From the sequence record PP925821.1: a stretch of DNA of 45,057 bases; one strand, written 5' to 3'. Below are positions 41,601 to 43,165 of this stretch, in pieces. This DNA comes from Escherichia phage Eeyore. The notes below the pieces were generated by a model. The model was not told the origin of the DNA and ran no database searches. It saw only the letters and a list, made by a program, of their open reading frames with translations. The first letter of the stretch is position 1, and each line of letters starts with the position of its first letter. The position numbers were made by a program, and so were the translations under genes.

Positions 41601-42231
41601 CAACGACAGGGAGGCAACGGCGCGCTCGCTGCTGAGCCTGCAGACGGACGTCAACGGCAACAAGGCATCCATCAACAGCCTGAACCAGACGTTCTCCGAT
41701 TACCAGCAGGCTATGGCCACGCAAGTAAACAGCATCACGGCGACGGTGAACGGGCATACCTCTGCCATCACAACTAACGCTCAGGCGATAGCTAACGTAA
41801 ACGGCGACCTCAGCGCGATGTACAACATCAAGGTTGGTGTCTCCAGCAACGGGCAGTATTACGCCGCGGGAATGGGTATCGGAGTGGAGAATACGCCATC
41901 CGGCATGCAGTCGCAGGTTATCTTCCTGGCTGACCGCTTCGCCGTCACCACGGCAGCCGGAAACAGCGTGGCTCTGCCGTTCGTGATCCAGAACGGGCAG
42001 ACATTCATTCGGGCCAGCTTCATTCAGGACGGCACCATTGAGAACGCCAAAATCGGCAACTATATCCAGTCGAATAACTATGTGGCTGGTTCTTCCGGCT
42101 GGAAGCTTGATAAGGGAGGGACGTTCGAAATTAACGGCGTGGCCGGGGGCGGGAGGATGCTGATATCCAGCACTCTCATTCGTATCTACGACAGCAACAA
42201 CGTGCTGCGCGTCAGAATGGGGTTATGGTAA
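38671..42231 (+). CDS. Central tail fibre / host-specificity protein J
   Basis: 1186 aa from ATG 38671; size, position after I and overall organisation as lambda gpJ. The track start at 38572 lies inside the lipoprotein gene. Confidence 0.9.
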   Translation: MQLLHGETIIQGAKGGGGSAHTPVEQPDDLLSVAKLKMLIAVSEGEIQGDLTAQNIFLNDTPLANDSGDYNFSGVKWEFRKGTQDQTYIAGMPQVDNELAVGTTVTTTAPWTRQFTNLSLDAIRIKLSLPVQYLYKDNGDMVGTVTEYAIDLSTDGGAWKTVVNGKFDGKTTTEYQRDHRIDLPKSTSGWSVRVRRITADASGSNSKLVNAFKVFSYAEVIDSKLRYPLTALLYVEVDSSQFNGSAPKVTCKIKGKLIKVPDNYDPTTRTYSGSWSGGFKMAWSNNPAWIFYDLVLDEIYGMGTRVDASMVDKWALYSIAQYCDEMVSDGAGGTEPRFTCNVFIQSQEDAWQVLNDLAAVFRGITFWGNDQIYVQADVPQDDVDWVYNVSNVIDGLFTYAGGSYKNRYSSCLVSWSDPQNHYSDTVEGVYDSALVERYDVRQTSLTAIGCTSQSEAHRRGRWVLLSNAKDGTVSFGVGLDGYIPLPAEIIGVADPFRSGKENGGRISAVNGRQITLDREVDYAAKDRLVVNLPDGKAQTRTISAVSADKKTVTVATAFSQVPVAGAVWAIDSDNLAIQYFRVTSIAANDDSTGGFTITAVQHDPNKYRYIDDGVRVESPPITVTPISVLSAPENIVVTESDHVSQGLTVASLDVSWDKVEGAIRYVAQWRKDNGDWINVPVTSAQGFSVQGIYSGSYDVRVRALNAQDTSSPWGYGETTYLSGKTGKPGTPLNFLATEDVVWHIDLTWKFPDGSGDTAYTEIQRATTADYANPELLVLVPYPAADYQHGPMPAGVRQWYRARLIDRIGNAGDWTDWIMGTSSIDVSEITNDILEDMKESETFKDLIENAVDSNEKIAGMANDIKQANDELEQQAKDIAKNAQDVGKVQTSVNELSSTVGNVSSSLSQLEQTVATADTALGQRIDNISVSMDGMTGGVKNSAIAIIQNGLAQVAARKTLSASVAGNSANLDRIDEVIVNDREATARSLLSLQTDVNGNKASINSLNQTFSDYQQAMATQVNSITATVNGHTSAITTNAQAIANVNGDLSAMYNIKVGVSSNGQYYAAGMGIGVENTPSGMQSQVIFLADRFAVTTAAGNSVALPFVIQNGQTFIRASFIQDGTIENAKIGNYIQSNNYVAGSSGWKLDKGGTFEINGVAGGGRMLISSTLIRIYDSNNVLRVRMGLW

Positions 42232-42527
42232 TGCCACAGGGTTTGCAATGTTGGGATAGTGCAGGGCGGGTTGCAGTGGATTTAAGCGATTACGCGGTCC
42301 GTTACATGGGCAGCGCAACTGTTTCGCTTGCTTCAGGAGAGTCGTCAAAAAATGTCGCCTTTTCTGGCGCAACGCAGGACGGGACGTTTGTCACCATCGT
42401 TTCAACTGGCGTGACTGTAAACGAGTATTTTTGCCGCGCTTATAACGGCGGCTTTACTCTCTACTATCTCCCCACGGGTGGAAGTGCCGCAATCACTCTC
42501 AATGTTGAGGTTTATAACTTTCAATGA
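42225..42527 (+). CDS. Hypothetical tail-region protein
   Basis: 100 aa, start overlaps J stop; N-terminal LQCWDSAGRVAVD motif shared with the next gene. Confidence 0.5.
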   Translation: MVMPQGLQCWDSAGRVAVDLSDYAVRYMGSATVSLASGESSKNVAFSGATQDGTFVTIVSTGVTVNEYFCRAYNGGFTLYYLPTGGSAAITLNVEVYNFQ

Positions 42528-43165
42528 GCGGATTCGAAGTTTACAACAGCGACGGAAAACTGCTGGTGGATTCACAAAACAGATCGACCATGTTTTATGA
42601 TCAACGCGCGCTGGGTGCCGTAACCAATAAAGGCTATTACCGTGTTGATAGCCCGTTTGGTGATGGCAGTACACTTGGCACCACTCCTCAGGCATTCTGG
42701 AATGACGGGCGCTTAAGGTGGCTGCAGCTGGGTACGAACAAATACGGTTTTCCGGGTGCTGATATGCTGGAAGATAATGCGGGTAGCATGATCCGAACTG
42801 CGCGAAATATTGGCATCCAGAGCGGCTATCTCGATGTGTTTGATAGTGCCGGAAACCTTATCTGGAGTGCGGCCTCAGCGTCTAAGATGCCGAGAGTATT
42901 CGGGTTCTTTGATGTGCCAGCGAACTATGACCTGCAGAACAATACGTTCTCAGTAAGTCTCAGTTTCAACCCCTGGATTCTGGTAAATAACTGCCCAGGT
43001 AATCTCAGCGATGATGGCACGGTTGTAGGGTATTCAGGTGTAGTGCTCAAATGGACTGGCTCGCAGCTGCAGGGCAGATATATATCTAAAAATCAGCGCA
43101 ACTGGAGCCAGACATTTCAGGGTAGGGGATTACGAATCCCCATTGCTCAGTTTGTCGGTATTTGA
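42524..43165 (+). CDS. Hypothetical tail-region protein (paralogous N-terminus, internal repeat)
   Basis: 213 aa; FEVYNSDGKLLVD and internal LDVFDSAGNLIWS repeat the motif of the upstream protein. Confidence 0.5.
   Translation: MSGFEVYNSDGKLLVDSQNRSTMFYDQRALGAVTNKGYYRVDSPFGDGSTLGTTPQAFWNDGRLRWLQLGTNKYGFPGADMLEDNAGSMIRTARNIGIQSGYLDVFDSAGNLIWSAASASKMPRVFGFFDVPANYDLQNNTFSVSLSFNPWILVNNCPGNLSDDGTVVGYSGVVLKWTGSQLQGRYISKNQRNWSQTFQGRGLRIPIAQFVGI

Follow-up and report, generated by a model that had tools for sequence, protein, structure and literature searches.

Gene organization at the end of the central fiber gene

The window analyzed here, 45,057 nucleotides of Escherichia phage Eeyore (PP925821.1), encodes the central tail fiber or tip attachment protein J at positions 38671–42231 of the plus strand (1186 aa from the ATG of the public gene calls; the longest open reading frame begins at TTG 38572). 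J matches the NCBIfam family lambda_TipJ (E 2e-149) and the Pfam families FNIII-A_GpJ, Phage-tail_3 and Phage_Tail_Tip. Its coiled-coil shaft, recognized by weak SMC-like and other coiled-coil matches, is encoded at 41143–41796 (+; residues ~858–1075 in the 1219-aa numbering) and is followed, with a small overlap, by a PF09327 Phage_Tail_Tip domain at 41764–42165 (+; residues 1065–1198, Pfam E 1e-49). The last ~30 residues (…GVAGGGRMLISSTLIRIYDSNNVLRVRMGLW; 42133–42228, +) are specific to the gene module described below. The fiber gene of HK639, the product of which has been modelled as a coiled coil able to switch to a β-prism (PMC12874032), has ~90% DNA identity to J at its end.

Two small genes follow on the same strand, at the positions (42225–43165) where an earlier sequence-only reading had placed them. 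The reading frame of the first, orfA, extends from 42225 to 42527 (100 aa). A start at ATG 42231, giving a protein of 98 aa (42231–42527, +), is more likely; this ATG overlaps the J stop codon as TAATG, and the majority of orfA homologues start with M-[PA]-Q-G-L-Q-C-W-D. The second gene, orfB (42524–43165, +; 213 aa), overlaps the orfA stop codon in an ATGA sequence, so that J, orfA and orfB are translationally coupled via overlapping stop and start codons. A convergent gene for a 120-aa lipoprotein with lipobox LLAG|C (43130–43492, −; phrog_25729), which the earlier reading had not included, overlaps the end of orfB with its 3' end. A side tail fiber gene of the stf type lies outside the module at 43619–44905 (+; phrog_1591 E 1.5e-175, PF25670 E 2e-60). 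An inverted repeat suspected by eye near the C-terminus of this side fiber, from the LLS annotation, was not found, and the two similar sites present are directly oriented.

In lambda the slot after J holds lom, stf and tfa. The proposal that orfA and orfB occupy the lom/stf slot is correct as to position, but the homologue of stf is another gene further downstream, and neither protein matches Lom/Ail. Their location suggests a reading in which both are lysogenic-conversion or membrane proteins (morons) unrelated to the tail, and the RefSeq and PHROG labels of N15 gp22/gp23 and T1 gp32/gp31 ('outer membrane protein', 'membrane associated protein'; phrog_425 in the category 'moron') are in line with it. 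We nevertheless regard this as highly improbable. Both proteins are devoid of a signal peptide and of membrane segments (maximum KD(19) 0.77 and 0.60), they gave no PADLOC match, and their genes have a GC content (0.48–0.54) only slightly under that of J (~0.55), unlike the AT-rich lipoprotein genes (0.39–0.46). The overlapping codons couple them to J. Moreover, genes of this type are present in T1-like and N4-like phages, which are strictly lytic and would have little use for conversion genes, and some genomes have them as the final tail genes ahead of the lysis cassette.

A repeated motif in J, orfA and orfB

The sequence-only reading had noticed a short motif at the start of both proteins and again within orfB, and all three strings that it quoted are present. 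The copies are encoded on the plus strand at 42240–42284 in orfA (GLQCWDSAGRVAVDL), at 42530–42574 at the N-terminus of orfB (GFEVYNSDGKLLVDS; predicted hairpin E5-7/E13-16) and at 42827–42871 within orfB (YLDVFDSAGNLIWSA; predicted hairpin E104-106/E112-115). No other stretch of the DUF8377 family, to which orfB belongs, is as conserved as the internal copy. A fourth copy, absent from that reading, was found in the final 18 residues of J (LIRIYDSNNVLRVRMGLW, from 42175; motif at 42175–42219).

Whether the motif is significant on alignment, the test proposed with the earlier claim, depends on the type of comparison. Direct comparisons are not significant: BLASTP of orfA against orfB gave no match, and a BLOSUM scan with single 15-mers was marginal, the orfA and orfB N-terminal copies mutually ranking 1 and 2 among 54,344 15-mers. 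A regular expression for the motif matched only the four copies in the six-frame translation, which is weak evidence because the expression was composed after the copies were known. Family profiles, on the other hand, gave hhalign E-values of 4e-6 to 4e-3, with alignments confined to the motif: 3.6e-5 for orfA against the N-terminal half of orfB, 2.1e-4 for the two halves of orfB, 4e-3 for orfA against the C-terminal half, and, against the internal copy of N15 gp23, 3.8e-6 for the N-terminal half of orfB and 2.5e-4 for orfA. The C-terminus of J aligned to the units with E 0.005–0.016. Narrow motif HMMs built from one family were discarded; they were too specific and missed the other copies. 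Of the 31 orfB positions with a conservation of 90% or more, 19 fall in the motif windows (hypergeometric p 7e-10), as do 14 of 30 in orfA (p 1e-4). The motif is real but short, and conservation within each family is highest there.

Such a short stretch of common hairpin-forming residues could also be a chance or purely structural likeness, a generic β-hairpin with an Asp/Asn-x-x-Gly turn that implies neither common origin nor docking. The lack of significance in direct sequence comparisons would fit this explanation, as would hhalign probabilities of only 5–87%. It does not explain why each independent pair of profiles recovers the same register, why conservation peaks at the motif, or why families that are otherwise unalignable, from Pseudomonas pyocins, Moraxella, Acinetobacter, Burkholderiales and Shewanella to enterobacteria, carry the motif at the same three or four places. 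A chance origin is accordingly judged improbable.

The two proteins had been described as a paralogous pair. What stands of this is the hairpin motif of ~15–25 residues common to both; outside it the two proteins cannot be aligned, so the sequences do not confirm that they are paralogous as wholes, and whole-protein paralogy was set aside as unproven, not as disproved. The predicted folds alone suggest a common unit.

Family assignments and predicted folds

PF28254 (DUF8377) is precomputed for all 106 orfB homologues, down to 31% identity, and the membership of orfB was read from these annotations. The Pfam version that was scanned is older than PF28254, and in it neither protein matched a family at E up to 1, including the Lom/Ail and tail-fiber families; NCBIfam gave no match either. 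A relation to phrog_2427 was found for orfA (E 6e-9), for residues 102–177 of orfB (E 1.6e-4) and for N15 gp22 (E 2.5e-3). Searches of PDB sequences with single sequences and with the profiles A1, A2, A3 and P0225 revealed no significant relative of either family. Sub-threshold matches to antibody V-domains (E 0.06–0.1) were treated as noise because the PDB is rich in antibodies.

Structure prediction, suggested earlier as a check, yielded confident AF2 models of both proteins that resemble phage receptor-binding domains. Both match 9rpt_C and 7eea_A, and the best structural matches are the receptor-binding protein (RBP) of phage Oekolampad bound to LptDE and the binding domains of tailspikes or pyocin fibers. 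The orfA model consists of a hairpin and six strands and matches single β-sandwich domains, including those of tailspikes and R-pyocin fibers, whereas the orfB model has two β-rich halves, each headed by a hairpin. The motif hairpins have a pLDDT of 68–77, which is below that of the cores (10-residue blocks mostly 86–97). In BFVD, a collection of predicted viral structures, orfB matched uncharacterized proteins of ~205–290 aa from Pseudomonas, Xanthomonas, Acinetobacter and Proteus phages, together with several unnamed entries.

Co-inheritance with the fiber terminus and a lipoprotein gene

All seven fibers that precede orfA and a DUF8377 gene have the same last ~30 residues, and they are otherwise unrelated, ranging from lambda-like and T5-like fibers to a 3,501-aa Acinetobacter fiber. 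The fibers of N15, T1 and Rtp end differently, and the N15/T1 ending is paired with another protein family. Every fiber found upstream of a DUF8377 gene terminates in PF09327. The J protein of a Cronobacter phage is N15-like until the module-specific ending, which places a mosaic joint at the last ~30 residues. The exchangeable unit has four parts, namely the last ~30 residues of J, orfA, orfB and the lipoprotein gene, which are inherited together across unrelated phages.

The lipoprotein has 36% identity to IME347 gp53 (E 1.5e-21) and homologues in 43 phage records, and it accompanies DUF8377 in lambdoid and T1-like phages alike. Its homologues adjoin DUF8377 in those checked (IME347, IsaakIselin, Skenny, HK639-like), but are far from it in KW1E_UTAR, KLB16 and KLB22; three distant DUF8377 loci are devoid of the lipoprotein. 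A scan of IMG/VR with the orfB alignment recovered close relatives only (77–100% identity), which serves for counting synteny and not for diversity, and in 79 of these 79 loci a lipoprotein homologue is located downstream of orfB. No significant Pfam or NCBIfam match was obtained for the lipoprotein besides phrog_25729, a group of unknown function, nor was sequence similarity to any characterized exclusion protein found. Its genomic context alone makes it a likely candidate for a cognate superinfection-exclusion factor: Cor, Llp and Rtp45 are likewise small secreted or lipidated proteins encoded beside an RBP gene and inherited with it.

Comparison with F-type pyocins

The locus is of a known kind: F-type pyocins have it as the PyoF11/PyoF12 module, and in T1-like phages it is called the "RBP locus downstream of gpJ". 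PyoF11 and PyoF12 constitute 'Specificity Module 1' of Pseudomonas F-type pyocins; they are encoded directly 3' of the central fiber gene and are essential (bioRxiv 10.1101/2021.02.16.431561; PMC12874032; PMC13455828). Both were found in pyocin particles by mass spectrometry, with matching density in cryo-ET, and they have been modelled on the fiber C-terminus by AF3 predictions that their authors call low-confidence. Predictions give PyoF11 a single Ig-like domain and PyoF12 two (PMC13455828). Phage homologues listed by Saha et al. (bioRxiv 10.1101/2021.02.16.431561) include N15 gp22/gp23 and T1 gp32/gp31, which agree with orfA and orfB in size and order, so that orfA is the positional equivalent of PyoF11 and N15 gp22, and orfB that of PyoF12 and N15 gp23.

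The similarity covers several features. In both systems a small protein (~100 aa) is encoded immediately 3' of the central fiber and is followed by one of ~210–250 aa; both proteins co-vary with the last residues of the fiber; and in the fiber itself a long coiled coil leads into a PF09327 tip. To judge from the predictions, the first protein may have one β-sandwich unit and the second two in both systems. The F-pyocin locus of P. paraeruginosa has the gene layout of J, orfA and orfB and the same four motif copies, at the end of PyoF10 (…YTVRDSAGQVRVEMGLLQS), in PyoF11 (…YGLRIYRENGTVAVD) and at the N-terminus (…YGVLVRNGLGQTVID) and an internal position (…YGLRVRNSAGSVVFD) of PyoF12. When the orfA and orfB HMMs were run against 1,286 ORFs from loci picked by their fiber alone, the matches were chiefly to ORFs after the fiber, the pyocin ones included (PyoF11 with E 0.02 for the orfA HMM and 1.5e-3 for the orfB HMM, PyoF12 with E 0.02, within the motif only); the remaining matches were one neighboring ORF and two overlapping alternative-frame fragments. 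Full-length sequence homology of orfA and orfB to PyoF11/PyoF12, N15 gp22/gp23 or DUF6453 was not found, as matches end at the motif, and BLASTP against the N15 and T1 proteins gave nothing significant. There are also differences: the N15 gp23 group carries no Pfam domain whereas orfB is a DUF8377 protein, the J terminus is of another type (…IYDSNNxLRVRMGLW), and the module includes a lipoprotein gene, unlike that of PyoF11/PyoF12.

The pyocin work also bears on a role in assembly. orfA and orfB could be chaperones that help to fold the C-terminus of J or the side fiber and are absent from the finished virion. Saha et al. at first left open whether the pyocin proteins bind the fiber or act as chaperones (bioRxiv 10.1101/2021.02.16.431561), small genes after the side-fiber genes of the same clusters have been treated as chaperones, with several of the products undetected in particles, and the two pyocin studies are at odds over which downstream proteins belong to the particle. 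Co-variation with the J terminus would be equally expected of a dedicated chaperone. However, PyoF11 and PyoF12 themselves are reported in particles, and for PA0642 this is backed by proteomics. The predicted folds are receptor-binding-like, with a receptor binder as the structurally closest protein and no match to Caudo_TAP or another Pfam chaperone family, and an exclusion lipoprotein as partner would suit a receptor binder instead. A chaperone function appears unlikely.

Proposed role and receptor

We consider it likely that both proteins belong to the virion, where they would form a receptor-binding tip for the central tail fiber, encoded separately from J. The earlier suggestion of tail-tip accessory or adhesin-like proteins is the best supported one because of the coupling to J, the absence of membrane segments, the RBP-like predicted folds and the gene position of the PyoF11/PyoF12 type. 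In the proposed mechanism both proteins would be made in step with J through the overlapping codons, would bind the J trimer non-covalently at its last ~30 residues, and would present their β-sandwich domains to an outer-membrane protein receptor. The motif would correspond to a β-hairpin that heads each β-sandwich unit (a single unit in orfA, two in orfB) and resembles the hairpin in which J ends. Each unit probably docks onto the end of J through this hairpin, which would stack on or extend the β-structure at the tip. In line with this, the motif copies of the Oekolampad RBP fall in residues 1–25, 113–142 and 206–234, and these three segments are exactly the parts missing from the cryo-EM map of the free RBP bound to its receptor. 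The lipoprotein, expressed from the prophage, would probably act as the cognate factor in superinfection exclusion.

Family membership points to the TonB-dependent transporter YncD as the most probable receptor. Infection by IME347 and by IsaakIselin/Bas10 depends on YncD, and both phages encode a DUF8377 protein. The prediction is limited by the 48% identity behind it and by the wider range of the family, which extends to phages of Klebsiella, Cronobacter and Acinetobacter. IME347 gp54, which we take to be the protein that its authors call RBP, has 48% identity to orfB over residues 1–212 of 213 (99% coverage in the reciprocal search) and 74% identity to the IsaakIselin homologue. orfA has 36% identity to IME347 gp55, and the J termini are of the same type. 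In IME347, however, the cassette is wholly convergent with J, whereas orfA and orfB are co-oriented with it; the accessory protein gp53 has an ordinary signal peptide instead of a lipobox; and the genome that hosts the module here is that of a temperate lambdoid (HK639-like) phage. Literature searches on the HK639 receptor and on LMessi, CharmingMan and Flotzy returned nothing relevant.

Separately encoded receptor binders are also found in T5, where pb5 ends a trimeric central fiber and the lipoprotein Llp blocks the same receptor, while lambda J has its own LamB-binding domain. We found no published structure that resolves how such binders attach to J-like fibers: T1 gp31 and gp32 are absent from the PDB, the fiber C-terminus is not resolved in the T1 cryo-EM paper, and neither are the pyocin tips. 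If docking by the hairpin holds, a small number of point mutations or a single multimer model could address this question. The locus probably holds the host-range determinant of an HK639-type prophage; it provides a testable receptor prediction and a candidate exclusion gene, and the four-part module is the piece to exchange for retargeting such phages or F-type tailocins.

A possible pseudo-trimeric arrangement of the tip

The closest structural counterpart, the Oekolampad RBP/Rtp44 (DUF6453; PMC12685063; PDB 9RPT), is likewise encoded beside J and is accompanied by a small exclusion lipoprotein (Rtp45). It binds LptD, and the J terminus there is of a third type (…GGRVxVGTF/W). The protein has three motif copies ~100 residues apart and a length of 311–321 aa, compared to 98+213 = 311 aa for orfA plus orfB, but it is a single chain instead of two and has no significant sequence similarity to them outside the motif.

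This leads to the one possibly new idea of this work, a putative pseudo-trimer, which we put forward tentatively and with clearly less confidence than the tip assignment itself. Three hairpin-plus-β-sandwich units would mimic the knob of a homotrimeric fiber and cap the three-fold tip of J, with their hairpins layered on those of J. The units would be split 1+2 in orfA+orfB, N15 gp22+gp23 and PyoF11+PyoF12, and fused in one chain in Rtp44/Oekolampad and in Shewanella and Vibrio proteins. If true, the motif would be a common docking code for the RBP families directed at FhuA, YncD and LptD and for the F-pyocin tips, groups so far described as unrelated, and the arrangement would explain how a symmetric fiber can terminate in one asymmetric receptor binder.

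The genes downstream of J

The window is that of an HK639-like lambdoid phage or prophage, with 90.6% identity to phage HK639 over 42100-43600. Two genes after J, which encodes the central tail fibre, had been proposed from sequence alone, and both ORFs were confirmed: orfA (42225-42527, + strand) and orfB (42524-43165, + strand), the latter overlapping the orfA stop as ATGA. The likelier start of orfA is the ATG at 42231, which overlaps the J stop as TAATG; homologues mostly start with MPQGLQCWD or MAQGLQCWD. Gene callers in public assemblies predict both genes and a convergent 120-aa gene (43130-43492, − strand), the 3′ end of which overlaps orfB. 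The HK639 counterparts, HK639_24 and HK639_25, are annotated as hypothetical. A scan of both proteins detected neither a signal peptide nor a hydrophobic segment. Within J, residues ~858-1075 (41143-41796) form a long coiled-coil shaft, an element missing from lambda J. The homologous HK639 fibre is listed as a predicted fold-switching coiled coil, one that might undergo the change from coiled coil to β-prism known from the F7 pyocin (PMC12874032).

The sequence-only reading treated the two genes as a paralogous pair built on a shared motif. The three motif strings that it quoted are all present, and it overlooked a fourth copy at the extreme C-terminus of J (LIRIYDSNNVLRVRMGLW). Direct comparison did not make the similarity significant: BLASTP of orfA against orfB gave no match and scans with single 15-mers gave only marginal scores. 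A regular expression spanning the four copies had no other match in the six-frame translation, which is weak evidence because the pattern was composed after the copies were known. Stronger evidence came from family profiles. Alignments were built for the orfA family, the orfB family and the N15 gp23 family (A1, A2 and A5), and searching 1.84 billion representatives added remote members to A2, giving A3. Profile-profile comparison matched orfA to the orfB N-terminus (E 3.6e-5) and to the orfB internal copy (E 4e-3), and the two orfB copies to each other (E 2.1e-4). The internal copy of N15 gp23 matched the orfB N-terminus (E 3.8e-6) and orfA (E 2.5e-4); the J terminus aligned more weakly with the units (E 0.005-0.016). 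In all comparisons of units the alignment was confined to the motif, with constant register. Motif windows hold 19 of the 31 highly conserved positions of orfB (p 7e-10) and 14 of 30 in orfA (p 1e-4). The motif is thus genuine and under selection. Outside it orfA and orfB share no alignable sequence, so that paralogy is not established by sequence. The best reading of the motif is that of a docking hairpin; it is no proof of gene duplication.

The AF2 models of orfA (pLDDT 88.8) and orfB (pLDDT 86.9, pTM 0.81) are confident. Every motif copy is predicted as a β-hairpin heading a β-rich unit, with confidence of 68-77 in the hairpins and mostly 86-97 in 10-residue blocks of the cores. Compared with predicted viral structures, orfB matches uncharacterised proteins of ~205-290 aa, some of which come from phages of Pseudomonas, Xanthomonas, Acinetobacter and Proteus.

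Comparison with F-type pyocins

In F-type pyocins the genes for PyoF11 and PyoF12 directly follow that of the central fibre. Both proteins are essential, and their homologues in N15, T1 and other phages were identified with HMMs (bioRxiv 10.1101/2021.02.16.431561). A 2026 cryo-EM study detected both proteins in particles by mass spectrometry, found matching density by tomography, and placed models resembling the R-pyocin and Pam1 binding domains at the fibre C-terminus (PMC12874032). One Ig-like domain is predicted in PyoF11 and two in PyoF12 (PMC13455828). With an F2 pyocin fibre fragment from a PDB match as query, the F-pyocin locus of a P. paraeruginosa was retrieved along with 25 further loci. 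This pyocin locus carries the same four motif copies as the window, at the fibre end (…YTVRDSAGQVRVEMGLLQS), in PyoF11 (…YGLRIYRENGTVAVD), and at the N-terminus (…YGVLVRNGLGQTVID) and inside (…YGLRVRNSAGSVVFD) of PyoF12. This 1+2 layout also occurs in Paraburkholderia, Collimonas, Moraxella and Acinetobacter loci. Shewanella and Vibrio loci have one ~368-aa protein instead, which in Shewanella bears three copies. The orfA and orfB HMMs, run against 1,286 ORFs of the fetched loci, matched chiefly ORFs after the fibre, the pyocin ORFs only at E ~0.02; the other matches were one neighbouring ORF of unchecked position and two overlapping alternative-frame fragments. The orfA/orfB locus is most likely a split receptor-binding tip module of a known kind, that of PyoF11/PyoF12 and the receptor-binding proteins (RBPs) encoded downstream of gpJ.

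N15 gp22/gp23 (L003 5528-6507) and T1 gp32/gp31 (L004 10608-11602) are labelled 'outer membrane protein' and 'membrane associated protein' in RefSeq, and PHROG places phrog_425 among morons. These labels are probably wrong, in view of the gene position and the hairpin motif carried.

Lineage and inheritance of the module

Homologues of orfB bear PF28254 (DUF8377), which occurs in 58 phage records. The module belongs to this lineage, and YncD dependence is shown for two of its carriers: IME347, whose homologue is 48% identical to orfB over its full length, and IsaakIselin/Bas10, whose DUF8377 protein is 74% identical to IME347 gp54. In a 2026 preprint, four 'unrelated' families encoded here are linked to FhuA, BtuB, LptD or YncD; accessory proteins are mentioned, and the C-terminal tip of GpJ is marked as associated with specificity. 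The neighbours of IME347 gp54 are, on one side, an orfA homologue (gp55; 36% identity, E 1e-18) and, on the other, gp53, which is 36% identical to the lipoprotein encoded at 43130-43492 (E 1.5e-21). In IME347 (L011 4683-6064) the orfA-like, DUF8377 and small secreted protein genes are co-oriented and convergent with J, whereas in the window (42231-43492) orfA and orfB follow J and the lipoprotein gene alone is convergent. The small secreted protein of IME347 has an ordinary signal peptide, its window counterpart a lipobox.

Three distant loci all have, before orfA and DUF8377, a gene for a fibre ending in PF09327, while the rest of the tail varies: a 3,501-aa fibre in Acinetobacter, a lambda-like tail in Cronobacter and a T5-like tail in Enterobacter. 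The A. baumannii fibre (L006 1-7663) has the PF09327 end and a …ITVYDDNNVVRVKLGLW terminus followed by orfA-like and DUF8377 genes, and indicates that the module serves very different tails. All seven fibres preceding orfA and DUF8377 end in …[IV]x[IV][YWF]D[SDA]NNx[LV]R[VI][RK][ML]GL[WF]. The N15 and T1 fibres, paired with the gp22/gp23 family, end in …IRDAxGxLRVQIGxxTGxx, and those of Rtp and Oekolampad have a third type of ending. Cronobacter J resembles N15 J up to its last ~30 residues and then changes to the ending shared by the seven fibres. The shared endings, the synteny and this switch indicate, from sequence comparison, that the inherited unit is the J terminus with orfA and orfB, often joined by the lipoprotein gene.

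A possible pseudo-trimeric tip

Three motif-like copies, at residues ~1, 121 and 215, occur both in Rtp44 (311 aa) and in the 321-aa RBP of Oekolampad. In the structure of the free Oekolampad RBP on LptDE, residues 1-25, 113-142 and 206-234 were modelled but have no cryo-EM density (PMC12685063). Each of these segments contains one motif copy (L100 701-1666), a coincidence apparently unremarked in the literature examined. Together, orfA and orfB likewise comprise 311 residues and three units. On these grounds we propose that three hairpin-led β-sandwich units, as modelled, would form a pseudo-trimeric cap, the hairpins becoming ordered only once docked on the J tip. Such a cap could be the common picture for these tips, and the motif offers a concrete and cheap test of their mode of attachment.

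The lipoprotein gene and neighbouring DNA

Members of the lipoprotein family are encoded in 43 phage records. The gene adjoins DUF8377 in those checked, but lies far from it in KW1E_UTAR, KLB16 and KLB22. In the related IMG/VR loci its place is downstream of orfB in every case (79 of 79). Its product is a likely candidate for an exclusion lipoprotein of the module. The HK639 counterpart (NC_016158, 23538-23897, − strand; 82.5% identity) has no annotation in the HK639 record, which calls a 52-aa plus-strand ORF (HK639_26) at that site, probably a mis-annotation; the LLS record annotates the gene as LLS_21.

An AT-rich gene (38049-38606, + strand; GC 0.39-0.44) that separates J from the tail assembly gene I encodes what is probably a lipoprotein (…VLFISGC; phrog_8179, of unknown function). 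The corresponding site in HK639 holds just a terminator, so the gene looks like an inserted moron. Right after the side-fibre stop (44905-45057, + strand), the DNA AAAGGTCGGTTTGGGAGACAGCGCC is followed by an open frame (KVGLGDSATANFGSLEIG…). This site resembles AAACCTCGGTTTAGGAAGTAGTGCG within the fibre gene (44085-44110) and the Fin invertase IR sites annotated in phage LLS. The two sites are in direct, not inverted, orientation and the window ends there; 44905-45057 may form the opening part of an alternative fibre-tip cassette.
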